64,000 bases of DNA from Escherichia coli (GCF_044324785.1 NZ_CP172127.1), one strand, 5' to 3'. Positions 21,280-41,424 are shown, counted from the stretch's first letter. A program made the numbers and translations. Notes: generated by a model not told the origin, from the letters alone.

Positions 21280-22833
21280 TTACTTGATATCCTTCACACG
21301 CATACCGTTGATCTGTTCATCCGTGATGGTATTGCCCGCTTTGAAGTAATCAACCACGGCGTGATAAACGTAATAACCGCCCGTTGTGTTACGCGCTCTC
21401 CCTTCGGTGAAGGCGCTAAAACCATCGCCACCATCAGCAAGGAAACTCTGAGTAGCAATGTGGTAAACCGTCGCATCTTCAATGGGTTTGCCATTCAGAG
21501 TCAGCGAGATAACCCGCTGACCAACCGGCTTACTGCTGTCGTACTTCATTTCCAGGCCTTTCGATACCTGTAAAACGCCATTACTTAAACTTGCGCCGTG
21601 TTCCATCAAACTGCGTAATTGTTTACCCGTGAGATCCATCGTCACCAGTTCGTTGGGGAACGGGAAGGTACTGATGACGCCGCCCATCGTAATCGCCCCT
21701 GCGGGGATCTCATTGCGAATACCGCCAGAGTTGGTTAAAGCCAATTGAGTGTTTTTACCCGCCGCTACCAGTAAAGCGTCCGCCGCCAGGTTCCCCAGGG
21801 ATGCCGATTCACCATAGGCACGTTTTAATTCAACCGGCGATTTCGCGACCGTTTGTTGCACCACTTCATCAAGCTTTTTATTCCAGCCGTCGATCACCTG
21901 TTTCGTTTGCGGATCGGGCTTCCACTCGTCGGCGTAAATGGTTTTAAGCTCGAAGTTTTTCACCGTAAAATCATGCGGCTTCTCTTTGTAGTCGAGAACC
22001 AGTTTGCCCACATCAATCCCGCCACTGTCAGTGGAAAGGATGAGCGTATTGCCGACTTTAATCGGTTCCGGCGTACCCACATGTGCATGTCCGGTGATCA
22101 AAATATCCAGCCCTTTCACCTGACTTGCCGTCTGAATATCTTTATCCAGTGCGCGACGCACATCAGTCCCTCCCATACTGGACTGGCGGGCCGGAACACC
22201 TTCGTGGATCAGGGCGACGGTCAAATCAACCTTGCCTTTGAGTTCATCGATATAACGTTGTAGCCATTTAATTTCATCACGCGCTTCAATACCCACTCGC
22301 GTGGCAGCAGATACTGTGTCATTAAAGGCAAATACACCGTGCAAACCTATAACGCCTATTTTCACACCGTCTTTTTCGATGATGGTATAGGGCTTATCCC
22401 AGAATGATTTACTGCTGTTCTGATAAAAAACATTGCCCTGCACAATCGGGAATTTTGCCTGACTCAACTGTAATAATGTGTTGTCCCAGCCGTGGTCAAA
22501 TTCATGGTTACCCATCGTGACAGCATCGAATGGCATGGTATTCATAATATCGATAATAGCCTTGCCTTTGGTCAGGCTGCTGATATATGGCCCGGTAAAA
22601 TAGTCGCCCGCATCAAAAAACCATGTCGCCTTATTTTTTGCTTTTTCTTGCTTAACCAGCGTAGTGATATTTGCCCAGCCGCCAATATCCCGTTTACCGT
22701 CCGCAATCCACGGCACTTTATAAGGCTCTACATGTGCATGGAGGTCGTTGGTATAAATAATGGTGACATCTTTAGCGCAAGCCCAGAATGGCAGTGTTAA
22801 TGCGATACCCGCAGCAAGTATTTTAATTTTCAT
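21280..22833 (-). CDS. secreted bifunctional metallophosphatase / 5'-nucleotidase (UshA-like)
   Basis: 517-aa ORF with signal peptide ([20 protein letters not shown]), calcineurin-like metallophosphoesterase motifs (DLHAHV, GNHEFD, GHAH) and a C-terminal 5'-nucleotidase-like region. Low-GC; absent from the K-12 metF-metL interval as I remember it. Confidence 0.8.
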
Positions 22834-22965
22834 AAACAGTCCCTTTCAGTGAGATAAAGGATTGCTACATTACGTTCTGAAAGAGTTATTTATGTGAGAG
22901 TAATCACATCCACAGGGGAGCGTTGCCGGACAAAATCAACGACCATGTGAAATCGTTGGTGATAT

Positions 22966-24096
22966 ATGTCGACTCTGTTTACGATTAATGCCTGCAAGTC
23001 GTTTGGTTGCCGTAATTTAGGGCAGCCAACATCGACAGATTATAGCTGGCCCGACTATCGACTGGGTTATCCGGCACTGCACTGTCGGGCATGTGGCAGT
23101 TACCCGCCGTTGTTTGACGAGCAACAATTTCGTGACTGGTTGACAGTTCACTTATCTACTTTTGCAACAGAGAAAGGCCATTTTTGCCCGGTATGTTATG
23201 GTACAGATACGATTTGTTATGGTCACAATCCACAGGGTTCGCAACGCATTCAATGCCGTAACTGCAAAAAAGTATGGACACCCAAACAATATCAGAAAGA
23301 AATAACGACTCCCGAAATAATCGAAACGGTTGCTTTTCTCGTGCCATTTCAGGGAGTCAGCAGCGGGCAGAAACTGTATGTTTTAATCAGTTTTGATGCT
23401 CTTCGCGGTAATATTCTTCATCTTTCTACTAATTACACGCAGCATCAGGCTGGAGAAAGTCTGCATTATCGATACAGAGGGAATGCAGAACCAGAGTTAC
23501 ACGAGAGTAATATTGTACAACGCGTTGATATGCGGGAAGCACAATTTCTACGCCGCAGTCAGTTTGATGAAATTCAGTATGGCAGCGCAGCGCTCAAACG
23601 CAATGCTAAAGGTGTTATTCTGCGTCCGGTTATCACTGCACACGGGCATTTCAGAGTACTGAATATTTTATTCCCTACAGTAAAAACACATGTAATTTCA
23701 CACGAGTGTTTTTTAAGAGGTGCCATTATTACGGCATGGGCTGATCTGTTTCGCCAACAGCAAGGTGAGATTTGGTTTATTGAAGAGGAAATAGCTGACG
23801 ATACCGATAATATGCCCTGGAGTTTTCAGGGAACAACTTATCACGGCTGGTGGAAAAATCAGTGGCAACTTTGGGGTCAGGGCAAAAATCGTAAAATGGT
23901 ATGTGCATTAACGGGCGGAAAGAGTAGCAAAGCAGAAATGCTCTCTTTAGCAACCAGCAGACATTTTATCGACTGGCTACATAAACAAGCAGTATTTACT
24001 CACAGCACCCCGCTTTCCGCAGGGCGCGTTACGCAAATACTGCTTTCTCTGGCTCAGGATTACAACAACTGCGCCAGGCGGTTAATATCCGACTGA
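22966..24096 (+). CDS. hypothetical protein with N-terminal Cys-rich zinc-ribbon-like motifs
   Basis: 376-aa ORF; N-terminal CxxC pairs (CKSFGC, CRAC, CPVC, CRNC) within ~100 aa; no recognisable catalytic motif in the remainder; low-GC; 3' end overlaps the convergent metL by 37 bp. Confidence 0.55.
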   Translation: MSTLFTINACKSFGCRNLGQPTSTDYSWPDYRLGYPALHCRACGSYPPLFDEQQFRDWLTVHLSTFATEKGHFCPVCYGTDTICYGHNPQGSQRIQCRNCKKVWTPKQYQKEITTPEIIETVAFLVPFQGVSSGQKLYVLISFDALRGNILHLSTNYTQHQAGESLHYRYRGNAEPELHESNIVQRVDMREAQFLRRSQFDEIQYGSAALKRNAKGVILRPVITAHGHFRVLNILFPTVKTHVISHECFLRGAIITAWADLFRQQQGEIWFIEEEIADDTDNMPWSFQGTTYHGWWKNQWQLWGQGKNRKMVCALTGGKSSKAEMLSLATSRHFIDWLHKQAVFTHSTPLSAGRVTQILLSLAQDYNNCARRLISD

Positions 24097-27931: not shown

Positions 27932-28249
27932 ATGGCTGAATGGAGCGGCGAATATATCAGCCCATACGCTGAGCACGGCAAGAAGAGTGAACAAGTCAAA
28001 AAGATTACGGTTTCCATTCCTCTTAAGGTGTTAAAAATCCTCACCGATGAACGCACGCGTCGTCAGGTGAACAACCTGCGTCACGCTACCAACAGCGAGC
28101 TGCTGTGCGAAGCGTTTCTGCATGCCTTTACCGGGCAACCTTTGCCGGATGATGCCGATCTGCGTAAAGAGCGCAGCGACGAAATCCCGGAAGCGGCAAA
28201 AGAGATCATGCGTGAGATGGGGATTAACCCGGAGACGTGGGAATACTAA
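27932..28249 (+). CDS. metJ: methionine repressor (ribbon-helix-helix)
   Basis: ORF 27887-28249; canonical Met[36 protein letters not shown] begins at ATG 27932 (105 aa). Confidence 0.96.
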
Positions 28250-28255
28250 AGCGGA

Positions 28256-28290
28256 AAAGAGCGGCGCGGAGTTAACCAGCCGCTTTTTTC
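28256..28290 (+). terminator. probable rho-independent terminator after metJ
   Basis: agcggc...gccgct inverted repeat followed by tttttt. Confidence 0.5.
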
Positions 28291-28308
28291 ATACATGGAC
28301 GTTTAACG

Positions 28309-28917
28309 ATGAAAATCAGGCTACTGATCCTCAGCCTGCTGGTTTCTGTGCCTGCATTTGCCTGGCAACCACAAACCGGCGACATCATCTTTCAGATCTC
28401 TCGCTCATCGCAAAGTAAAGCGATCCAACTGGCGACCCATTCCGATTACAGCCACACCGGTATGCTGGTGATACGCAACAAAAAGCCCTACGTTTTTGAA
28501 GCGGTCGGCCCGGTGAAATACACCCCGCTCAAGCAGTGGATTGCCCATGGTGAAAAGGGCAAATACGTTGTTCGCCGCGTTGAAGGCGGACTGAGTGTTA
28601 AACAACAGCAAAAACTGGCGCAAACGGCAAAACGTTATCTCGGCAAACCGTATGATTTCAGCTTCTCATGGAGCGACGATCGCCAGTACTGTTCGGAAGT
28701 GGTGTGGAAGGTTTACCAGAATGCGCTGGGAATGCGCGTGGGCGAACAGCAAAAGTTGAAAGAGTTCGATCTGAGTAACCCGCTGGTTCAGGCAAAGCTC
28801 AAAGAACGTTACGGCAAGAATATTCCGCTTGAGGAAACGGTGGTCTCGCCACAAGCCGTTTTCGACGCGCCACAACTCACCACGGTTGCCAAAGAGTGGC
28901 CGCTGTTTTCGTGGTAA
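28309..28917 (+). CDS. yiiX: putative lipid-binding hydrolase (NlpC/P60-like, DUF830), signal peptide
   Basis: 202-aa ORF MKIRLLILSLLVSVPAFAWQPQTGDIIFQ; synteny downstream of metJ. Confidence 0.9.
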   Translation: MKIRLLILSLLVSVPAFAWQPQTGDIIFQISRSSQSKAIQLATHSDYSHTGMLVIRNKKPYVFEAVGPVKYTPLKQWIAHGEKGKYVVRRVEGGLSVKQQQKLAQTAKRYLGKPYDFSFSWSDDRQYCSEVVWKVYQNALGMRVGEQQKLKEFDLSNPLVQAKLKERYGKNIPLEETVVSPQAVFDAPQLTTVAKEWPLFSW

Positions 28918-29021
28918 TGGATGATAAAAAAATAATTCCCGCCGTAGTCTGTTTGTTGCTTTGTAGTTGCACGACCTTTCCGCAAGCTGTCGCTCCGGTA
29001 AACGGTGATGCCTCCAATTAG
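28917..29021 (+). pseudogene. possible 5' fragment of a small lipoprotein-like gene truncated by the IS1-like element
   Basis: ATG overlaps the yiiX stop (taATGg); encodes MDDKKIIPAVVCLLLCSCTTFPQAVAPVNGDASN (hydrophobic stretch plus Cys) then runs into the IS1 left end at 29004. Short and speculative. Confidence 0.25.
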
Positions 29022-29766
29022 TTGAATTAAGGATATAATACTCGCTTCTAAGGTTGTTTCATGGTCACAGTTAACCTTCATTGTCCCCGTTGCCAGTCCG
29101 TTTAGGTTTACCGTCACGGGCAGAACCCCAAAAGACATGATCGATTCCGCGGCCGTGACTGTCACCGGGTATTTCAGCTCAGTTACTGTTACGAGCCCCG
29201 TAAACCGGGAGTTAAAGACCAAATCGCTGAAATGGCTTTCAACGGTGCCGGGGTTCGCTATACTGCCCGTACGCTGAAAATCGGCATTAATACAGTCATC
29301 CGAACTTTAAAAAACTCTCGCCACGAAGAATAACGTCATCCCCGGTCGCTCATGCTGATGTGGCACTCAACTGCGAACTTAGTCAGCAATGGAGCTTTGT
29401 CGGCAGTAAAGCGCGACAGCACTGGCTCTGGTACGTGTACAACACGAAAACTGGTGGTGTTCTGGCCTACACTTTTGGCCCCCGGACTGATGAAACCTGT
29501 CGTGAATTGCTGGCGCTGCTTACCCTTTTACCATCGGCATGTTGACCACTGACGAATGGGGTAGTTACACCAGAGAGTTACCAAAGGAGAAGCATCTGAC
29601 TGGTAAGATTTTTACTCAGCACATTGAGCGTAACAATCTGACCCTGAGAACCCGAATCAAACGTCTGGCCCGCAGAACCATCTATTTCTCGCGTTCTGTA
29701 GAACTTCATGAAAAAGTCATCGGTGCTTTTATCGAAAATATATGTTCTACTGATTGGAGTCATCAC
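29004..29766 (+). mobile_element. IS1-family insertion sequence, degenerate (insA disrupted, insB frameshifted)
   Basis: Left end ggtgatgcctccaa and right end ttggagtcatcac resemble IS1 terminal inverted repeats; ~763 bp; internal ORF fragments resemble InsB. No obvious flanking target-site duplication. Confidence 0.8.
29360..29763 (+). pseudogene. insB: IS1 transposase insB, frameshifted
   Basis: InsB-like peptides in two different frames (29360-29545 WSFVGSKARQHWLWYVY...; 29539-29853 DEWGSYTRE...IERNNLTLRTRIKRLARRTIYFSRSVELHEKVIG); the upstream insA frame is interrupted by a stop. Confidence 0.75.
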
Positions 29767-29866
29767 TCTTCTGATGAGCTTTCCTTGGATGATTACCAGA
29801 CTGAATACACAGCCAAAGATTTTTACCTCATTCTGCTCTTTTTTCTCAAATGACATATATTATATT

Positions 29867-30145
29867 TTACATCATATTCATAGGCATATGACATTCCCCC
29901 GCCCCCATTATGTCATTGTGGGTTGATGTTGGGCTTTCATAAAAAAATACATCTTTTTTTGAACTAGCATTAATTATATTTACTTTATACATTAAAATAT
30001 TTTCTCCATCTGGAAATATTTTAGCCACACAATATAAAGCAGCTAAATCCGAATTACTTAAAAATATATTGTCATCACTCATAACTCCAGCCATTAAATG
30101 ACTGGAGACTAAAGCAAGGAAATAACAACATTGTATTGCCTTCAT
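29867..30145 (-). CDS. candidate Rhs immunity protein (RhsI) for the orphan CT module
   Basis: Small AT-rich ORF immediately downstream of the orphan rhs-CT stop (30206); internal start at 30145 (MKAIQCCYFLALVSSHLMAG...) preceded by SD aagggag; ORF track's longer version starts at 30181. Function inferred from position only. Confidence 0.55.
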   Translation of the reverse strand: MKAIQCCYFLALVSSHLMAGVMSDDNIFLSNSDLAALYCVAKIFPDGENILMYKVNIINASSKKDVFFYESPTSTHNDIMGAGECHMPMNMM

Positions 30146-30205
30146 TTTAATTACTCCCTTGCCTGATAATTGTAACTCCATTCCCTTTAGCTTTGGGATT
30201 ATATT

Positions 30206-31636
30206 TTAGATAGGTGTTATTTGGTGTTCCCAAGTAACTACTGTATTCTTTTTTTCCATTCCATTCATATAAGAATTCGTTAAATCTTTGCTTGAAAAAT
30301 TTAGACTATCATAAACATCATTTTCTTTTGTTACTTTATTTCCTTTATCGTCAGAGTAAAAACCGTGAGTGTGATAATCGCCTACTCTCTCTGAACCTTC
30401 AGGGCGTTTTATATTTCGCAAGTCTACACTATCATTATCATTTGAACTTATCGGATTCATGGGGGAATATTCACCTTGCTTCTTACATATTAGTCCACCA
30501 TATTCTTTATTCTCGTTAATTGATTCTCCATTACACATTGCCAATGCAAATATTCCAATATCATCTATATTTTTTGATTTAAATTCATATAATCCTAATG
30601 GATCCATGCCATTCACCGGGCTCAGCGGATATGTATACAGGTTCCATCCCCCCTTCAGCCCAATCGGATCCTGAGTGATATACCGCCCCTGCAGCGGGTC
30701 ATAATAGCGGTGGCGGTTGTAATACAGGCCGGACTCCTCATCATACTGCTGCCCCGGCAGGCGGATGAGCTGCTGCAGTTGATGCGGGTTCTCTTCATTC
30801 AGCAGATTGCCCCACTCATCGTATTCTGCGCACCATTCTGTTGCCCCTTCCGTGCTGACAAGCGCCAGCGGCAGGCCGCGATGGTCGCAGTGGTACAGGT
30901 GGATTTTTCGCGCCGGCGTGTACACCGGGTCCATCTGGTTTTGCATCTGCTCCACCGTCAGGCCGCACGATGCCAGCCAGCGGCGGCTTTCCTCACTCAC
31001 CCGGTCAGCCAGGATTTCACTTTCCAGCCGGTCGAGCATCTGCACCAGCACCGGCGGGAACACCACACTGCCACCGTCTTCACCGCCGGACTGCTGAAGC
31101 GCATCCGCCAGGCTGCGGCGCTGCGTTTTCGCCAGCTCACCGGTGGCGGTTTCGACCCTGATGAGTGGCGTGAAGCTCCCCGGCTGATAAACCGTCTGGA
31201 TGCGGGTTCTGTCGTTCTGTATCGTGGTCAGCCGGTCGCCGTCCCAGCCGTACCAGGTCACTTCCGGTTTCCGTGACAGCGACATCCAGCCCGTCAGGTC
31301 CCGTTCACGCCGCCACACCCGTTTTGCCACCCTGCGGCCCAGCGGGTCGTAAAGATAGCGACTTTCGACCAGCGGCTCTGCATATTGTGTCCGCGTGTAG
31401 TGCACCAGCCGGTGCTGACTGTCGTAATGGTACCGGTGAGTCCGCTCATCATCCGTGCGGATAACCCCTTCCGGGATGAGGTCGGTTTTCTCTGTCAGCC
31501 TGCCGTGACGGTCATACCGGTAAAGATAGTGCGCGTCACGGGCGATACGGTTATCCGGCCACATGCTGAGGGTGCTGTCCGGGTGCAGCTCCGGGTCGGG
31601 CAGGCGGTTGCCTGCCGGGTCCGTGGCATACGGGAT
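30206..31636 (-). CDS. orphan Rhs C-terminal module: 3' part of the rhs core plus a distinct C-terminal toxin domain (5'-truncated gene)
   Basis: ORF 30206-31564 (452 aa); Rhs-core homology continues upstream to ~31636 with an in-frame stop beyond. Core ends with ...[28 protein letters not shown] (DPxGL), followed by a 127-aa unique AT-rich C-terminal domain ([10 protein letters not shown]...[12 protein letters not shown]...). Confidence 0.8.
30642..31636. repeat. ~1 kb direct repeat (rhs core 3' region), copy A, near-identical to 34963-35957
   Basis: Base-by-base comparison of the two intervals shows the same sequence with only a handful of substitutions at a constant offset of 4321 bp; the ORF track shows identical antisense peptides at 31273-31464 and 35594-35785. 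Confidence 0.9.
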
Positions 31637-31678
31637 ATCAATGCCCAGGTTACATATAATAAGAGCAATTAACTTAAT

Positions 31679-32005
31679 TTATTTGTTTATAATGCGCTTA
31701 CTTAATACAAACCATTGAATATACCCTCCTGACAGAAAATAAAGCCATGTTATTATCGCCATAATATACTTACTATCAATCCTTACGCCAATAATGTCTG
31801 AAACAGTCCCTATAAATATTAGAGCAATAAAGAATACTATGCCTGTTGGAAAACATATTACCATCATTCCATAAGACATGAGACTAATTAACTCGCTCAC
31901 ATCACGAGTGGAGTCTAATAGTGAAAGTCTATGCATGGAAAAGAATAGTATTAAAAGCGATAAAGCCAGCCATGTAGCTCTGAATAAAAAAATAATACAT
32001 TTCAT
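31679..32005 (-). CDS. small hydrophobic membrane protein (about 3 TM segments); candidate orphan immunity protein
   Basis: 108-aa AT-rich ORF MKCIIFLFRATWLALSLLILFF... between the H-repeat element and the orphan rhs fragment; function inferred from context only. Confidence 0.45.
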   Translation of the reverse strand: MKCIIFLFRATWLALSLLILFFSMHRLSLLDSTRDVSELISLMSYGMMVICFPTGIVFFIALIFIGTVSDIIGVRIDSKYIMAIITWLYFLSGGYIQWFVLSKRIINK

Positions 32006-32039
32006 TACATCACTCCGGTGAATACAAATCTAATAAAGC

Positions 32040-33330
32040 GTCCAATGTTATTTCCGGAGCACTTCATCTTACATGTTTCTAAAGAATCATTAGACCAGTC
32101 AGGGCAAGATTACGAAAGCCCGCTCCCCGCAAGGACTGACGCGAGATAGTTTCTGTCCATGGCTGCTTTTCGCATCTTACGTCTTAACCCTGCCTTGAAT
32201 ACCTTATCATTCGTCAAAATATTAATAGCAATGTGCCGTATCCCTGAAAATAATTCTGCTGCGTTTCCTCTTCTTATTTTGCAGTCGTCTTCATTCATTA
32301 CCACGTCCAGACGCCAGTGCAGCTTATTCTCCACGTGCCAGTGGTTTCGGATTGCTGTGGCGAACTTCTCAGCGGTTAAATCAGCAGAACTGATATAATA
32401 TCTGACCGTCATTTCTGGCTCTTTCTTTTATTCTGCTATTATTGACCGAAAGGAGACTGCCACGCATAATTTTTCAGTCCTTTCTATTCAAATGTAAAAT
32501 CAATAAGTTCATCAGCGACATCGCAAACAATATGAAGACGGATTTCTTCTCTGCCGTGACTCTTTTCACTAATTGCGTAACTGTCATGCTCTGGATTATT
32601 TAATTCTTTCAGCGGAAATGTTTCCTCAAAGGCTTTATTCAACCGCCCCTGGTTTCCTTTTACAGCGAATAAGTAATCACCACCCTGTTTTTGTATCTTC
32701 TCTGCAATATCTTTCTGGCAACCTATCGCATCAGTTGTGATGATTTTCCCTTTAATATACAAAATGTTAAGAAGTTCAGGGATAGCTGTGATCTCATTAG
32801 ATTTCTCATCCGTCCTGATCTGCCCCAGGACCAGAATGTGCATTGTTGAGAACGCACTAATAACATGAATCGCTCCCCTTCGGCGACTCTTATCATAAGA
32901 GTGTCGGAGCATTTTTCCATCAATTGCAATGACGTCTTTATCATCTGAAGAATGGCAGTCACGCATCCAGTTAATAAAGCACTCATGAAATTTTGCAGGG
33001 CTGATACAGGATACAACTCTGGCAATGGTATCGTGGACAGGAATACCATTTTCAAAATCACCGTATTGTTTTAAAAAATCGAGATGTGTTTCCCCAAAAT
33101 CCTCTATATCTTCCCAACCTTCTGCACCCGAAATAACGGCACAAATAGTCAACAGTAGAATATCCGATAATTTATGTTCCACTTTCCAGGCTTGTCTGTA
33201 ATCGGGGATAATAGAAATATGCTCCATCAATTTTTTAAGTTCCATTTTGTTCTCCTTAATTATGTAAGGAGTATTTGATCATGTATAAGCAATAAAAAAC
33301 AGCTTTAGGTAATGAGGAATATCTCAATTT
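32040..33330 (-). mobile_element. H-repeat (H-rpt) element, ISAs1-family, with a frameshifted transposase; boundaries approximate
   Basis: Two consecutive minus-strand ORFs in different frames (32484-33245 [55 protein letters not shown]...; 32110-32412 [44 protein letters not shown]...) together resemble the ~378-aa H-repeat-associated ISAs1-family transposase of E. coli Rhs elements. Confidence 0.8.
32110..33245 (-). pseudogene. ISAs1-family (H-repeat) transposase, split by a frameshift near 32413-32486
   Basis: N-terminal 253-aa and C-terminal 100-aa pieces are in different reading frames separated by ~70 bp. Confidence 0.8.
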
Positions 33331-33348
33331 TCAAACATAAAATGCGAA

Positions 33349-33935
33349 TTATTTAGTACAAAAAAGCAGCGTTACGTGATCTTTCCCTGGCATGTCATTA
33401 GATGAACCAGTTATACAACCCTCGGAACAGAATCGAGGTCCTAAAGACGGACCAAAAGCGTTTAAACAACTATGTATTGAAAATCCATTACGATTATAAG
33501 TTCCTGTATTAACTGACGGTACTAATCGTATGCCGTCAGGTTTTCTATTGCTTGCTCCCGGGTCATTAACATTCCAACTCCATAGGCCTTGAGGTATTGG
33601 CCCTCTATTTATAAATGTGTACAACGGGGATTATTTTTACATTGCATATTATTACCAGAAGCGACTGGAATACTAAGCACATCATAAAAATTATCATCAC
33701 CTGGTATATCTGAAACACACGAAAGCATACCTAAAGTTATGCTGTATAAACAGGTGGCTAATCCCAAGGGGATCGATTCCAGAAATCGGGTTCAACGGAT
33801 ACTGATAAAAATTCCACCTACCTTCCAGCCCAATCGGAGCCTGAGTGTTATACCGCCCCTGCTGCGGTTAATGTTACCGATAATAGTTATAGTACAGCCC
33901 TGATTCATCATCATACTACTGCTGCGGCAGTCTGA
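33349..33935 (-). pseudogene. degenerate orphan rhs remnant (diverged core 3' end plus disrupted C-terminal region)
   Basis: 33800-33935 is a diverged, indel-containing copy of the rhs core 3' end (compare 34963-35100); downstream frames are interrupted; the 91-aa ORF 33349-33624 is in a different frame. Confidence 0.6.
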
Positions 33936-33948
33936 TGAATTATTGCTT

Positions 33949-34410
33949 TTACGGATTCTCCTTATTCTTCCTTCTATCCATTCGCTTTAGCTTTTTGAGA
34001 TCTTGAAGTTTGCTCTTTGCATCAATATTACCGTTATTTACAGCGAATTCCATCCAATAAATAGCTTTATTCAAATTATAATGTTCTGATAATATTGGAT
34101 TTGTATCCGATAAAAAAACCCCATAATTAAACTGCGCTGTAACATTCCCCTGAGATGCTGATCTTTCTAAGTATCGCAATTGTTTGTAAATGTTATTTTT
34201 AGTAAAGCAGTAATATTGATATAGTCGAAATGATGCCTCTGAATCACCATGTTGTGATTTATACTTCAGTTTCATCAACTTTTCTTCACTTAAATCATAG
34301 GTCATTGCTGTAGACCCCATCATACTTTCGTTTTGTTTTATTTTCACATCAGCACCATGCAATTGAAAAATAAAAGAAAAATAAAAAAATAGTAACAAGC
34401 ATGCTTTCAT
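33949..34410 (-). CDS. Sel1-like repeat protein with N-terminal signal peptide; candidate cognate Rhs immunity protein (RhsI)
   Basis: 153-aa AT-rich ORF starting 12 bp downstream of the main rhs stop; signal-like N-terminus MKACLLLFFYFSFIFQLHGA; Sel1/TPR-like motifs (...YQYYCFTKNNIYKQLRYLERSASQGNVTAQFNYGVFL...). Confidence 0.65.
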   Translation of the reverse strand: MKACLLLFFYFSFIFQLHGADVKIKQNESMMGSTAMTYDLSEEKLMKLKYKSQHGDSEASFRLYQYYCFTKNNIYKQLRYLERSASQGNVTAQFNYGVFLSDTNPILSEHYNLNKAIYWMEFAVNNGNIDAKSKLQDLKKLKRMDRRKNKENP

Positions 34411-34421
34411 ACATCTACAAC

Positions 34422-37400
34422 CTATCTTATATCACTGGGTTTTTCTGGCGTACCTTGCATATTAGAAATGGGGTGCCCAGATGGCCCATATGTTATCCAA
34501 TTACCAAGGTCTTTTGTTGTTATAGCCATTAGATCCTTATTTGAATTAAGGTTCGTTGGTGCTGTTAGCACTGTATCCATTTTTAACTTACCATTAGTTC
34601 CTCGCCCCCACCACGTCCATAGCGTGTCAGGTCCTATTACATTTGTATGTAACTCTTTAGCTAATTGGCTAGCAAATGAATTTTGTCCTTTACCTGTATT
34701 ACAAGAAAATAACCAAACTGTCATCCCATCTTTATAATTCCCATCAAATTTAATTAGATATGCTAGATCTTTAGCTGTCATGATACTGCGCGTTGCGGAT
34801 TCAATAGATGTGGGGGTACCATGCCCCCCGATTGTGAAAACGCCTGGGATATTAATCTCATCAGCTACAGAATGGATAAGATCACTTTCGGGGTATAAAT
34901 TTATATCAACCAAACCTTGCGGATCTACATTTATGACCGGATTCAACGGATACTGATAAAAATTCCATCCCCCCTTCAGCCCAATCGGATCCTGAGTGAT
35001 ATACCGCCCCTGCAGCGGGTCATAATAGCGGTGGCGGTTGTAATACAGGCCGGACTCCTCATCATACTGCTGACCCGGCAGGCGGATGAGCTGCTGCAGC
35101 TGGTGCGGGTTCTCTTCATTCAGCAGGTTGCCCCACTCATCGTATTCTGCGCACCATTCTGTTGCCCCTTCCGTGCTGACAAGCGCCAGCGGCAGGCCGC
35201 GATGGTCGCAGTGGTACAGGTGGATTTTTCGCGCCGGCGTGTACACCGGGTCCATCTGGTTTTGCATCTGCTCCACCGTCAGGCCGCACGATGCCAGCCA
35301 GCGGCGGCTTTCCTCACTCACCCGGTCAGTAAGGATTTCACTTTCCAGCCGGTCGAGCATCTGCACCAGCACCGGCGGGAACACCACACTGCCACCGTCT
35401 TCACCGCCGGACTGCTGAAGCGCATCCGCCAGGCTGCGGCGCTGCGTTTTCGCCAGCTCACCGGTGGCGGTTTCGACCCTGATGAGTGGCGTGAAGCTCC
35501 CCGGCTGATAAACCGTCTGGATGCGGGTTCTGTCGTTCTGTATCGTGGTCAGCCGGTCGCCGTCCCAGCCGTACCAGGTCACTTCCGGTTTCCGTGACAG
35601 CGACATCCAGCCCGTCAGGTCCCGTTCACGCCGCCACACCCGTTTTGCCACCCTGCGGCCCAGCGGGTCGTAAAGATAGCGACTTTCGACCAGCGGCTCT
35701 GCATATTGTGTCCGCGTGTAGTGCACCAGCCGGTGCTGACTGTCGTAATGGTACCGGTGAGTCCGCTCATCATCCGTGCGGATAACCCCTTCCGGGATGA
35801 GGTCGGTTTTCTCTGTCAGCCTGCCGTGACGGTCATACCAGTAAAGATAGTGCGCGTCACGGGCGATACGGTTATCCGGCCATGCGCTGAGGGTGCTGTC
35901 CGGGTGCAGCTCCGGGTCGGGCAGGCGGTTGCCCGCCGGGTCCGTGGCATACGGGATGCGGATATCAAGGTTCGCTGCCGTGGTGTGGACGCCGGTCAGC
36001 CTGCCGGTGTCGCTGTAGCTGTAACTCCGGGTCTGGCGCGGGCTGCTGATGCGGATGAGTTCGCCGTTGTCGTTCCAGGTGTAATCGCGGTCATACTGCA
36101 GGCTGTTCAGGTGCTGGCTCTGTAACTGCCCGGCAGGGGTGTAAGCGGTGGTGAGTTCATAACGGCCGAAGCTGCGCAGCGTTTCCCGGTGCAGGCGGTC
36201 GCGGGTGTACTCCACCAGCGGTGTGTCGCCGAGTTTCATGCCTGCCAGCCAGCCGCTGCCGTAAGTCAGCCATTCCACGGCGGGCAGGCTGTCCGGTATA
36301 CAGCGGTTCGCCAGCCCCTGCGCGTTGTACGCATGTCTGGTCTCATGCTGCCAGACCAGTGCTTCCGTCTGCGGGTGATGCACCGTCTGGCGCTCACCGG
36401 TCAGGCGGCCTTTCTCATCATACCCGTAATGCACCGTCACCCGGTGGCCTTCGCTGAGATGGCTGATGCCTGTCAGCCAGCCGCGTTCGTCATACTGCCA
36501 CTGCTCTGCAGGTTCACCCTTCACGGTACGCTGCGTGATGCGGTCTGCTTCGTCATAGTGCCAGTGGGTGACCAGCCCCTCATCCTCGCTGCGGATAAGT
36601 TTGCCGGTCAGGTCGTGGTGATAACGCTGTGTACGGCCGTCAAAGCCGGTTTCCTGTATCAGACGGTCAAGTACATCGTAACGGAAGGTGGTGTGGCTGC
36701 CGTTTTCACTGGTCAGGCGGATGACCCGTCCGGCAGCATCGTATTCCATACTGCGCGTCAGACCACCCTGCGTGGTACGGATGGCCTTTCCCCACGTATC
36801 GTACTGTGTCCCGTTTCTGCTGCCGTCCGGGGCAATGACGGCGGTCAGGTCACCGGCGGCGTTGTATTCATACCGCGTTTCATGGCCCTGCATGTCTTTC
36901 ACCGCAATTAACTGTCCACGGCTGTCGTATGCGCGGTACTGGCTCAGGCCTTCCTCGCGGTGCACCGCCGTCACCTGACCAAAACGGTCATGGTCATAAC
37001 GGGTTACATAACCGGAACAGTCAGTGACGGTCAGCAACTGACCGTAACGGCTCCATGTCATGGTTTTCCGGCTGCCGGTGGCATCTTCCGTTGCGCAGGG
37101 TAAGTCACTGTGTGGATTATCATAACGGTAGCGGGTGATATCGCCGTTGTGTGCGGTTTCCTGAATCAGACGGCCGGATTCATCATATTCCCGGCGCAAC
37201 TCCAGCCCGTCAGTCCCGGTGGCTGACGTTAACTGGTTGTGGTGGTTATAGTAAAACGCCGATGCCCTGCCATCCGGTGTGGTGATGCGCGTGATGAGTC
37301 CCGTCACCACATCCGGGCTGTACTCAGTCGTCCGGCCTGCGGCATCCGTCTGTGCCTTAAGCCTGCCCACCGCGTCAAACTGACTCTGCGTGACGCTGCC

Positions 37401-38651
37401 GTCCGCGTGTTCCTTTTTCACCACCCGCTTCAGCCCGCCTTCGCCCTGCGTGTGCAGGACTTCACGGCGGTCCAGGCTGTCGGTGATGGTGATGTGGTCT
37501 TTCTCATACTGATACGTGTAGCTTAAGCCTGCCGGGTTTAGCTGTTCTGTCACCCGCCCGTCACTGTCGTAACGGTAACGGATTTCCGGCCGGCCCGTGT
37601 GACGGTGCGCCACCATCCGGCCCCGGTATTTATCATCGTAAGTAAAGCTGCGCACCTGTGTGCCGCTGCGGTCATACACCGCCGCCAGTTCGCCGCGTGG
37701 CGTCCAGCCATAGCGTACCAGCGGCGCGGCTGGCAGGTTGTCCGGATATTCCGGGTCGTGCGTCAGCCACACGGCAGACAGACGGATGCCGTTGTCCCGG
37801 CCATATTCGGTGTAACCCGGCAGGGTATCAGGAAAAGCGGACGGTTCCGCCCCGCCGGAAATGGCCTGCTGCCGGGCCTCTTCTGCCCGCAACGCCTGCG
37901 TGGTCAGTACCAGCCGGAAGTGACGCCCGGCACCATCCGTCACGCCGGTGATTTCGCCGCTGAATTCGCCGCCAGCCTCACGGTGGAACGTCTGTGTGCG
38001 CCCGAAGCGGTCCACCAGCCCGGTCAGTACCCGGTACGGCGGCAGTGGCGCAGGCAGCACCTCATCCGCCTCCGGCACCCGCTCACACCAGCCGAGTACC
38101 CACCACGGCCCCTGCGGACTGTTCGTCGCCAGATAACGATGCGGACTCAGGCGAAGCTCTTCCGGCAGCGCCTGCCAGAGTGCGGCCAGCCGGTGACCTT
38201 CATCCAGTTTCGCCACGCCGCCGCGCACCAGCCAGAGTGACTCGCTGCGGCTGTAACCGTCCTCACCGGGAAACAGGTGCTCAAAATACAGGCTTCTGCC
38301 GCCGTTATCACTGAGTATCAGTGTGTTATCGCGCAGCTGTAAGCGGATATCCGCAGGCATTTTCCAGCCGGGGCCGAGGCTCCCCACCGGCGCGGGCGTT
38401 TTTGTCCGGTAACTGCTGTAGGTGCGGGAGAGGATGAACGGCAGCGGGCCGGGCAGGGCAAGGTCGGTTTCTCCGGGAAGGACCTTCGCACCGAGCAGCG
38501 GATTGACCGGATGGCCGGACGTCACCCCGCCGGGGCACACCGAACAGGCCACGCCGGTGGGGGCACCAATACGTACCCCGGCTGAACCCTGAACAATGCT
38601 ACCGCCATACTGCGTCATGTCGCCCTGACGCGCCGCCGGTTTTCCGCTCAT
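34422..38651 (-). CDS. rhs: full-length Rhs protein (PAAR-like N-terminal domain, YD-repeat core, DPxGL, unique C-terminal toxin domain)
   Basis: 1409-aa ORF; N-terminus [42 protein letters not shown] typical of E. coli Rhs; many YD/RYxYD repeats; core ends ...[11 protein letters not shown]; 162-aa C-terminal domain ([10 protein letters not shown]...FTIGGHGTP...[10 protein letters not shown]...) not recognised by me. Confidence 0.95.
34963..35957. repeat. ~1 kb direct repeat (rhs core 3' region), copy B, near-identical to 30642-31636
   Basis: See copy A; lies within the main rhs gene. Confidence 0.9.
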
Positions 38652-38770
38652 CGTAAAATCCTTTTGAAATAAATAAGAACCAGAAGCCTAGCGCCAGTCA
38701 ACAACAGGAAATGATAATGAGTTAACACCCCGGAATTTTTCAGAATTTATAAAAGGCAAATTACAGGCAC

Positions 38771-38799
38771 AAAAAAAGCGCCGTGCGGCGCTTTTTTCG
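38771..38799 (-). terminator. rho-independent terminator downstream of rpmE
   Basis: aaaaaaagcgccg-tgc-ggcgcttttttc hairpin flanked by A- and T-runs (potentially bidirectional); the 3' end of rpmE is at 38811. Confidence 0.7.
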
Positions 38800-38810
38800 G
38801 AAATCCGGTC

Positions 38811-39062
<252 letters not shown>

Positions 39063-39066
39063 CTAA

Positions 39067-41424
<2,358 letters not shown>

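Follow-up and report, generated by a model that had tools for sequence, protein, structure and literature searches.

A long form of the Rhs element between yiiX and rpmE of Escherichia coli, with a predicted cysteine-peptidase tip and a Sel1-repeat partner

In Escherichia coli K-12 the convergent genes rpmE and yiiX are separated by a spacer of 60 bp (strain MG1655), whereas in the E. coli sequence analyzed here (GCF_044324785.1, NZ_CP172127.1) 9.9 kb of DNA lie between them, at positions 28,918 to 38,810 of a stretch of 64,000 nucleotides, hereafter the window. What is this DNA, from which parts has it been assembled, and what might its genes do? The evidence supports a polymorphic-toxin island of the Rhs type, comprising a full-length rhs gene followed by displaced C-terminal tips, an H-repeat and an IS1 remnant. 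We consider it probable that the island is the long form of the Rhs element of this junction, with a main gene ending in a predicted cysteine-peptidase tip that most likely acts in the periplasm, a Sel1-repeat protein as its presumed immunity partner and orphan modules as a reservoir of further tips.

An Rhs island at the yiiX-rpmE junction

The main gene comprises a conserved core and a variable C-terminal tip, and is followed on the same strand by a small gene:

34422–38651, minus strand: main rhs, whole gene, 1409 residues (stop codon, 34422–34424)
34911–38651, minus strand: conserved part of main rhs, residues 1–1247 (NCBIfam RHS_core; Pfam DUF6531, RHS repeats and RHS)
34425–34910, minus strand: main tip, 162 residues (1248–1409), predicted clan-CD cysteine peptidase resembling a cysteine protease domain (CPD)
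33949–34410, minus strand: YibG-like Sel1/TPR-repeat protein, 153 residues, presumed immunity protein for the main tip (RefSeq, 'sel1 repeat family protein', yibG)

Hidden Markov model searches gave strong NCBIfam and Pfam matches for the long open reading frame (ORF). RHS_core covers residues 1–1247 with 2626 bits against a cut-off of 2000, accompanied by TIGR03696 (Rhs-associated core, residues 1170–1247), TIGR01643 and YD_repeat_2x, and Pfam places DUF6531 at residues 46–123, followed by at least 12 RHS_repeat matches and the RHS domain. The core is 96% identical in nucleotide sequence to that of K-12 rhsA. As read from the sequence, the RHS-associated core ends in a PxxxxDPxGL-type motif, after which the tip begins with VDINLY; identity to other rhs genes ceases at this boundary.

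Alignment of the empty K-12 site to both edges, with yiiX at 28309–28917 (plus strand) and rpmE at 38811–39023 (minus strand), places the inserted DNA at about 28922–38754, that is, about 9.8 kb. On the left the homology stops 4 nt past the yiiX stop codon and on the right it is back at about 38755–38764, the rpmE-proximal ~55 bp, including the shared terminator, being native sequence. The flanks display the usual metL-metB-metJ-yiiX and rpmE-priA-cytR order. All parts of the island lie on the minus strand except IS1, which lies on the plus strand. A classical integrative island was ruled out, no tRNA and no integrase being found among the ORFs and annotations of the region.

The initial annotation had described yiiX and rpmE as adjacent in K-12 and had read the interval as an accessory Rhs toxin island; both statements hold, since the ~9.8 kb are absent from K-12 at this site and a check of K-12 disclosed no such genes between yiiX and rpmE. 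The full-length rhs gene, the H-repeat element, the degenerate IS1 and the alternation of GC-rich core with AT-rich tips (58–69% GC in the rhs cores, 30–42% in tips and immunity genes or small ORFs) were likewise recovered. At least three toxin/immunity modules had been listed there (one intact, one degenerate, one orphan); the island comprises four tip-bearing pieces: (i) the intact main tip, (ii) a decayed tip, (iii) an RhsC-type tail of ~100 nt beside ybfB, and (iv) a DUF4329 orphan.

Eleven Rhs positions are catalogued in E. coli and Shigella, position 11 being located between yiiX and priA and carrying a clade-I rhs gene, and the same study describes shared pools of tips and displaced downstream tips (Jackson et al. 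2009, BMC Genomics 10:584, PMC2935791, Table 3). The island of the window is this catalogued locus 11, or RhsF-type element, an ordinary and already known one. It shares with it the site, the clade-I core, the DUF4329 tip with the associated small gene dsORF-f3, and the overall pattern of GC-rich core, AT-rich tips, displaced tips, H-repeat and insertion-sequence remnant. Nothing differs in kind: the window holds a minority long form, in which the main gene carries the yibJ/yibG-type tip and the DUF4329 tip is orphaned, with a frameshift in the latter and another in dsORF-f3. The product name dsORF-f3, as used in RefSeq, presumably points to the RhsF of the Hill laboratory, an element reportedly described by Zhao and Hill in 1995 under the title 'Reshuffling of Rhs components to create a new element'. 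The RhsF-RhsFI pair of enterohaemorrhagic E. coli (EHEC) was considered as a candidate for the same element and ruled out; it corresponds to ECs0604/z0705, with another locus and another tip (PMC7618764, PMC7216683). The rhs gene that bears the DUF4329 tip in strain EDL933 goes by the name 'RhsB' (z5488), and in O157:H7 strain F3113 the DUF4329 tip occupies the yiiX-rpmE site.

The main tip and its Sel1 partner

The sequence of the main tip has no match in NCBIfam, in Pfam even at E ≤ 10, or among the sequences of the Protein Data Bank (PDB). A word-indexed protein search returned close relatives only, and an exhaustive search retrieved 562 cluster representatives at E ≤ 0.001. In other organisms, very large proteins of 2000–6800 residues (P0025, P0028, P0029, P0031, P0033 and P0043) contain between two and five copies of the domain.

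An alignment of 40 diverse homologues discloses a near-invariant His30-Gly31 pair and Cys70 (His1277 and Cys1317 of the full protein), together with a conserved FAxxLA...V.AP stretch, conservation being strongest in residues 1–105. The AlphaFold2 model of the tip, with a mean pLDDT of 93.5, displays a caspase-type α/β fold in fold comparison. The family profile aligns the His and the Cys to the HG...C motif of legumain (E 0.14), Pfam DUF4347 is matched by 4 of the 40 homologues at E ≤ 0.001 and by 10 at E ≤ 0.1, and a few of them touch Pfam C80, C13 or C25. The predicted assignment of the fold to clan CD is well supported, and the main tip would be a CPD-like cysteine peptidase with His1277 and Cys1317 as its dyad.

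Known CPDs of clan CD comprise (i) Tce1 (PDB code, 9qpe), (ii) the MARTX CPD from Vibrio cholerae (PDB codes, 3fzy and 3eeb), and (iii) the CPDs of TcdA and TcdB from Clostridioides difficile (PDB code, 3ho6). The main tip shares with them the order His-Gly...Cys at similar spacing, but it lacks a family match at the sequence level and is much smaller, comprising ~105 conserved residues and a β-rich tail. In addition, it is carried on an Rhs shell, whereas the known CPDs belong to large exotoxins or are housed in an Hcp ring. By analogy with other Rhs proteins, it may be type VI secretion system (T6SS) cargo, as is Tce1 from Pseudomonas aeruginosa. It is paired with a predicted secreted Sel1 immunity protein, which would imply an antibacterial role in the periplasm, whereas Tce1 and Tce2 have no immunity gene.

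The assignment is not new in kind. A 'Tox-Caspase' class has been described, some versions of which are C-terminal toxins of γ-proteobacterial RHS proteins (Zhang et al. 2012, PMC3482391). Moreover, an in-silico study of O157:H7 strain EDL933 described an RhsA tip with no known motif and a Sel1/TPR immunity partner, the I-TASSER model of which hit 3HO6, the TcdA cysteine protease domain, and read the match as a glucosyltransferase toxin (PMC7216683). We take the EDL933 RhsA tip to be the main tip because in another O157:H7 strain a full-length core bears the main tip, followed by yibG, with 99.1% identity.

Does the predicted peptidase itself constitute the toxin? It could instead be a releasing peptidase, the toxic part then being the β-rich last ~55 residues, or none at all. 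The conservation peak in residues 1–105 speaks for this alternative, Zhang et al. (2012, PMC3482391) assign a releasing role to the majority of caspase-like domains in polymorphic toxins, and the present domain is repeated two to five times in proteins of 2–7 thousand residues, as processing domains often are. Rhs proteins, however, already free their tip by the aspartyl autoprotease at DPxGL, a motif present here. Furthermore, in 147 of 150 single-copy homologues the domain is the last one and no more than 80 residues separate it from the C-terminus, the tips of 100–200 residues leave no space for a second toxin, and a dedicated, conserved partner of the immunity type is encoded downstream. 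We give the releasing role a slim chance and retain the reading of the tip as a toxic peptidase.

The partner gene begins 11 nt past the rhs stop codon. Its product displays weak Pfam matches to TPR_27 and Sel1, and its N-terminus, MKACLLLFFYFSFIFQLHG followed by AD, is hydrophobic and resembles a Sec signal peptide. In Salmonella salamae, an orphan tip 47% identical to the main tip is followed by a Sel1/TPR ORF of 153 residues beginning MKRILYLSMIVFFVHYKSYG, and in a distant locus, with vgrG and PAAR genes just upstream, an Rhs protein of 1337 residues ends in a tip of this family and has behind it a Sel1 ORF of 132 residues beginning MKLFFLIILVTTMTGFNA. As judged from these sequences, the pairing of toxin and Sel1 protein is conserved together with the apparent signal peptide, and the main-tip family is tied to the T6SS in at least one locus. 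Since the Sel1 partners of distant homologues keep the signal peptide, the main tip most likely acts in the periplasm of the target cell, where the Sel1 protein would block it.

The same N-termini bear on a further alternative, in which tip and immunity gene form an intracellular module, toxin-antitoxin-like or regulatory, expressed from internal starts without export. Such behavior has been reported for Salmonella Rhs orphans (PMC7043789) and for the unrelated RhsF-RhsFI pair of EHEC (PMC7618764); the literature in its favor thus concerns other Rhs loci only, and EHEC RhsF represents another locus with another tip. In-frame Met codons do occur in the orphan core fragment of the island described below, but no internal promoter signal above chance is present in the sequence, and immunity proteins whose N-termini resemble signal peptides make better sense as a defense against a periplasmic toxin arriving from outside than as cytoplasmic antitoxins. 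The intracellular module is improbable in our judgment, periplasmic action remaining the preferred reading.

Among 5426 complete E. coli genomes, the set used for all genome counts below, the module of main tip and Sel1 gene is present in 3428 (63%), usually as an orphan of the K-12 type and sometimes on a full-length core, for example in an O157:H7 strain. No experimental study of a yibJ/yibG-type pair was found in the literature searched.

Displaced tips and the two forms of the locus

Besides the main gene and its partner, the insert comprises:

28922–29002, no strand: left edge of the insert, from the yiiX stop codon to IS1 (end of K-12 homology)
29003–29769, plus strand: IS1H-like element, 767 bp, full length, transposase frameshifted (NCBIfam transpos_IS1, partial)
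29867–30145, minus strand: dsORF-f3, putative immunity partner of the DUF4329 tip (RefSeq, 'RHS element protein dsORF-f3')
30206–30589, minus strand: orphan tip, 127 residues, DUF4329 (Tox-JAB-2) by Pfam, with HTH motif
30590–31636, minus strand: orphan rhs core fragment, 1.05 kb (RHS_core 695 bits, model positions 937–1261), with no start signal of its own
31679–32005, minus strand: ybfB, intact, 108 residues, predicted multi-pass membrane protein by hydropathy (RefSeq, 'protein YbfB')
32002–32106, minus strand: RhsC-type tip, reduced to its last ~100 nt and colinear with the end (3') of rhsC in K-12 (RefSeq, 'missing N-terminus')
32100–33393, minus strand: H-repeat, ISAs1 family, transposase split by a frameshift into ORFs 32484–33245 and 32110–32412
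33349–33938, minus strand: decayed displaced tip, Tlde1/DUF2778-type, equivalent to K-12 yibS/yibW, with stops and frameshifts and no immunity gene left
38652–38754, minus strand: island-specific leader upstream of main rhs and right edge of the insert, followed by resumed K-12 homology and rpmE

The comparison with K-12 highlights a mosaic. Window 33390–35391 is 98% identical to yibJ-yibG-yibS-yibW, the array behind rhsA, and window 30615–32106 is 97.5% identical to the segment formed by the rhsC tail, ybfB and the ybfO core. These RhsA-type and RhsC-type segments are joined here via the H-repeat, located at their junction, the two ORFs of which match NCBIfam transpos_ISAs1 (NF033564) with 286 and 97 bits; the element is 94.6% identical to the K-12 pseudogene ybfL, and RefSeq labels it 'frameshifted'. 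Two differences from K-12 stand out: yibJ is an orphan pseudogene there, whereas the island has this tip joined in frame to a complete core, and yibV is absent from the island.

The decayed tip, colinear with K-12 yibS-yibW, keeps a core-end remnant of 170 nt (33770–33938), 75–79% identical to the other copies. The tip proper (33349–33769) contains several stops and frame changes between this remnant and an ORF of 91 residues, and RefSeq flags an internal stop. Its longest ORF matches Pfam Tlde1_dom weakly (E 0.21), and homologues at 67–86% identity carry PF10908, one of them being named 'tlde1 domain-containing protein'. In K-12, ybfB is the small ORF after rhsC; it is presumably the immunity gene of the RhsC-type tip, kept here without its toxin, and the predicted membrane nature of YbfB hints that the target of the RhsC tip may be the membrane.

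In the orphan module the DUF4329 match has an E value of 1.2e-11 and covers residues 339–432 and model positions 6–93 of 116, the domain being incomplete. DUF4329 corresponds to Tox-JAB-2, for which Zhang et al. (2012, PMC3482391) defined an H[ST]H motif, and DYHTHG, read in the orphan tip, fits it. Strain 19A14 (L001), the most similar long-form genome with 98.3% identity over 11.5 kb, served as reference for the frameshifts, and RefSeq annotates dsORF-f3 beside its cognate tip in that locus too. Relative to it, a deletion of 1 nt in a T-run at 30255 replaces the last ~35 residues of the orphan tip, and a deletion of 1 nt in a C-run at 29901 alters the last ~22 residues of dsORF-f3. Strain N3, an independent assembly, matches the orphan region at 99.9% without gaps and has both dsORF-f3 and rhs flagged as frameshifted; therefore, the two frameshifts are probably real, and sequencing error, considered as their source, is unlikely. 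dsORF-f3 is also flagged as frameshifted in H10 and O157:H7. The DUF4329 module is probably dead in the window strain.

The N-terminus of dsORF-f3, MKAIQCCYFLALVSSHLMAG, resembles a signal peptide, so that its product may be an immunity protein of the periplasm. DUF4329 is referred to as an RNase domain in recent T6SS papers, which cite Ma et al. 2017, and a nuclease had been proposed by Zhang et al. 2012. If dsORF-f3 is periplasmic, a target in the periplasm would fit better than either role.

The terminal inverted repeats of the IS1 element match at ~19 of 22 positions by eye, and no obvious target-site duplication was seen around it. RefSeq describes it as 'IS1-like element IS1H family transposase, frameshifted'.

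How do these pieces relate to the element as found elsewhere? The yiiX-rpmE site is occupied in ~40% of the complete genomes; in 3244 of the 5426 the two genes are no more than ~1.3 kb apart, the site being empty or holding just a small insert. The DUF4329 tip and dsORF-f3 are carried by 2164. In the short form of the locus, present in ~2000 genomes, the same site (strains H10, N3 and O157:H7 F3113) contains the IS1 remnant, dsORF-f3 and a full-length rhs gene that bears the DUF4329 tip directly. The long form, defined by at least 80% coverage of the 11.5-kb stretch, occurs in 148 genomes from varied hosts. The two forms differ by ~4.3 kb, and the segment missing from the short form is flanked by direct core repeats (30615–31636 and 34936–35957) that are 98.1% identical over 1023 nt. 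As judged from this comparison, the short form appears to stem from recombination involving the two 1.02-kb core repeats of the island. The C-terminal displacement model (Jackson et al. 2009) and the orphan cdiA-CT/cdiI arrays (Poole et al. 2011, PMC3150448) share with this island a full gene followed by tip/immunity cassettes that keep core homology, and a natural variant, here the short form, equal to a deletion between the repeats; in the island the interconversion is deduced from genome comparison.

The extent of decay makes an inert relic worth weighing, with a silent main gene, an element that merely hitch-hikes, and no toxin delivered from this locus in the window strain. The orphan toxin, dsORF-f3, the H-repeat transposase, IS1 and the Tlde1-type tip have all decayed, T6SS genes are missing nearby, and promoter-like sites number 20 against 13.3 ± 4.0 in shuffles, which is not clearly enriched, promoter and terminator counts being near the shuffled level. 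Against this, the main rhs ORF of 1409 residues, its tip, the Sel1 gene and ybfB are all intact; the main Rhs protein differs from that of strain 19A14 at 24 of 1409 residues, with no stops, and the long form is kept intact in the 148 genomes from varied hosts. We regard the relic as unlikely.

Several further observations concern the region. The best match over the island among complete E. coli genomes is 98.3%, none being identical to window 28000–39500; strain N3 is the closest locally, with 99.0% in yiiX and 99.9% in the orphan module, and carries the short form. Strain C41(DE3), of the B lineage, carries a small, different insertion between yiiX and rpmE, annotated 'TIGR02117 family protein'; the junction thus takes more than one kind of cargo. 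An Rfam scan matched only the native L31 ribosomal-protein leader (RF03157, 60 bits), outside the island at 39030–39082 (minus strand), upstream of rpmE and intact. A second accessory insertion, at window 21280–24096 between metF and metL, comprises a metallophosphatase/5'-nucleotidase-like gene of 517 residues (minus strand) and an ORF of 376 residues (plus strand) with no NCBIfam match; both are also present in strain N3, and H10 and O157:H7 have just a hypothetical ORF of 135 nt there.

Proposed working and significance of the element

According to established knowledge of Rhs proteins, the YD shell would enclose the tip, the aspartyl autoprotease at DPxGL would free it, the Rhs protein would be carried on the T6SS spike into neighboring bacteria, and the downstream ORF would protect the producer and its kin. 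At this locus, the main tip would operate as a cysteine peptidase in the target periplasm, with the Sel1 partner blocking it in that compartment, and the orphans would represent the reservoir of tips. Recombination between the core repeats would delete 4.3 kb and equip the main gene with the DUF4329 tip and dsORF-f3, leading to the short form; by the reverse route, insertion of a new tip and displacement of the old one would lead to the long form.

A number of observations weigh against this scheme. The main tip sequence itself matches no peptidase family, and the agreement of the tip with solved CPDs in Foldseek is weak (E ~0.02, TM 0.33–0.40). Tce1, the nearest solved relative, is not toxic to E. 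coli or yeast; Tce1 and Tce2, both without immunity genes and non-toxic to E. coli, are thought to be anti-eukaryotic, Tce2 harming yeast in a Cys-dependent manner (PMC13323088). Periplasmic action is read only from N-termini resembling signal peptides, judged by eye and by hydropathy. As regards delivery, the N-terminus of the main Rhs protein reads KPAARQGD and gives no match to the Pfam PAAR model, no vgrG, hcp or PAAR gene adjoins the main rhs leader, and no T6SS gene (vgrG, hcp, separate PAAR, tss) lies within the 64-kb window. Finally, the data are compatible with change between long and short form in either direction.

As a discovery the locus adds little, since published work already covers the site, the element, the mosaic and the displaced-tip model, and the RefSeq annotation is correct. 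The initial annotation had pointed to the island as the likely place for an uncharacterised toxin/immunity pair, which is right in that the pairs are experimentally uncharacterised; the sequences, however, are not new, and all three tips fall into predicted toxin classes, namely Tox-Caspase/CPD-like, Tlde1 and Tox-JAB-2. What it does offer is a single Rhs locus caught cleanly in two natural states, the long form in 148 genomes and the short form in ~2000.

The part with some open biology is the pair of main tip and YibG, present in 63% of E. coli genomes, including K-12. We tentatively propose, as a possibility rather than an expectation, that the main tip stands for a family of small toxins, as yet uncharacterised, that are cysteine peptidases of clan CD (no Pfam model, ~560 cluster representatives across bacteria) and would act in the periplasm of target bacteria and be neutralized by secreted Sel1 proteins such as YibG. 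The main tip now has a testable mechanism, with named predicted catalytic residues and a predicted compartment. If true, the family would comprise periplasm-acting antibacterial relatives of the MARTX and TcdA/TcdB CPDs and of the T6SS effector Tce1, and a function would be at hand for yibG, a common gene of E. coli.

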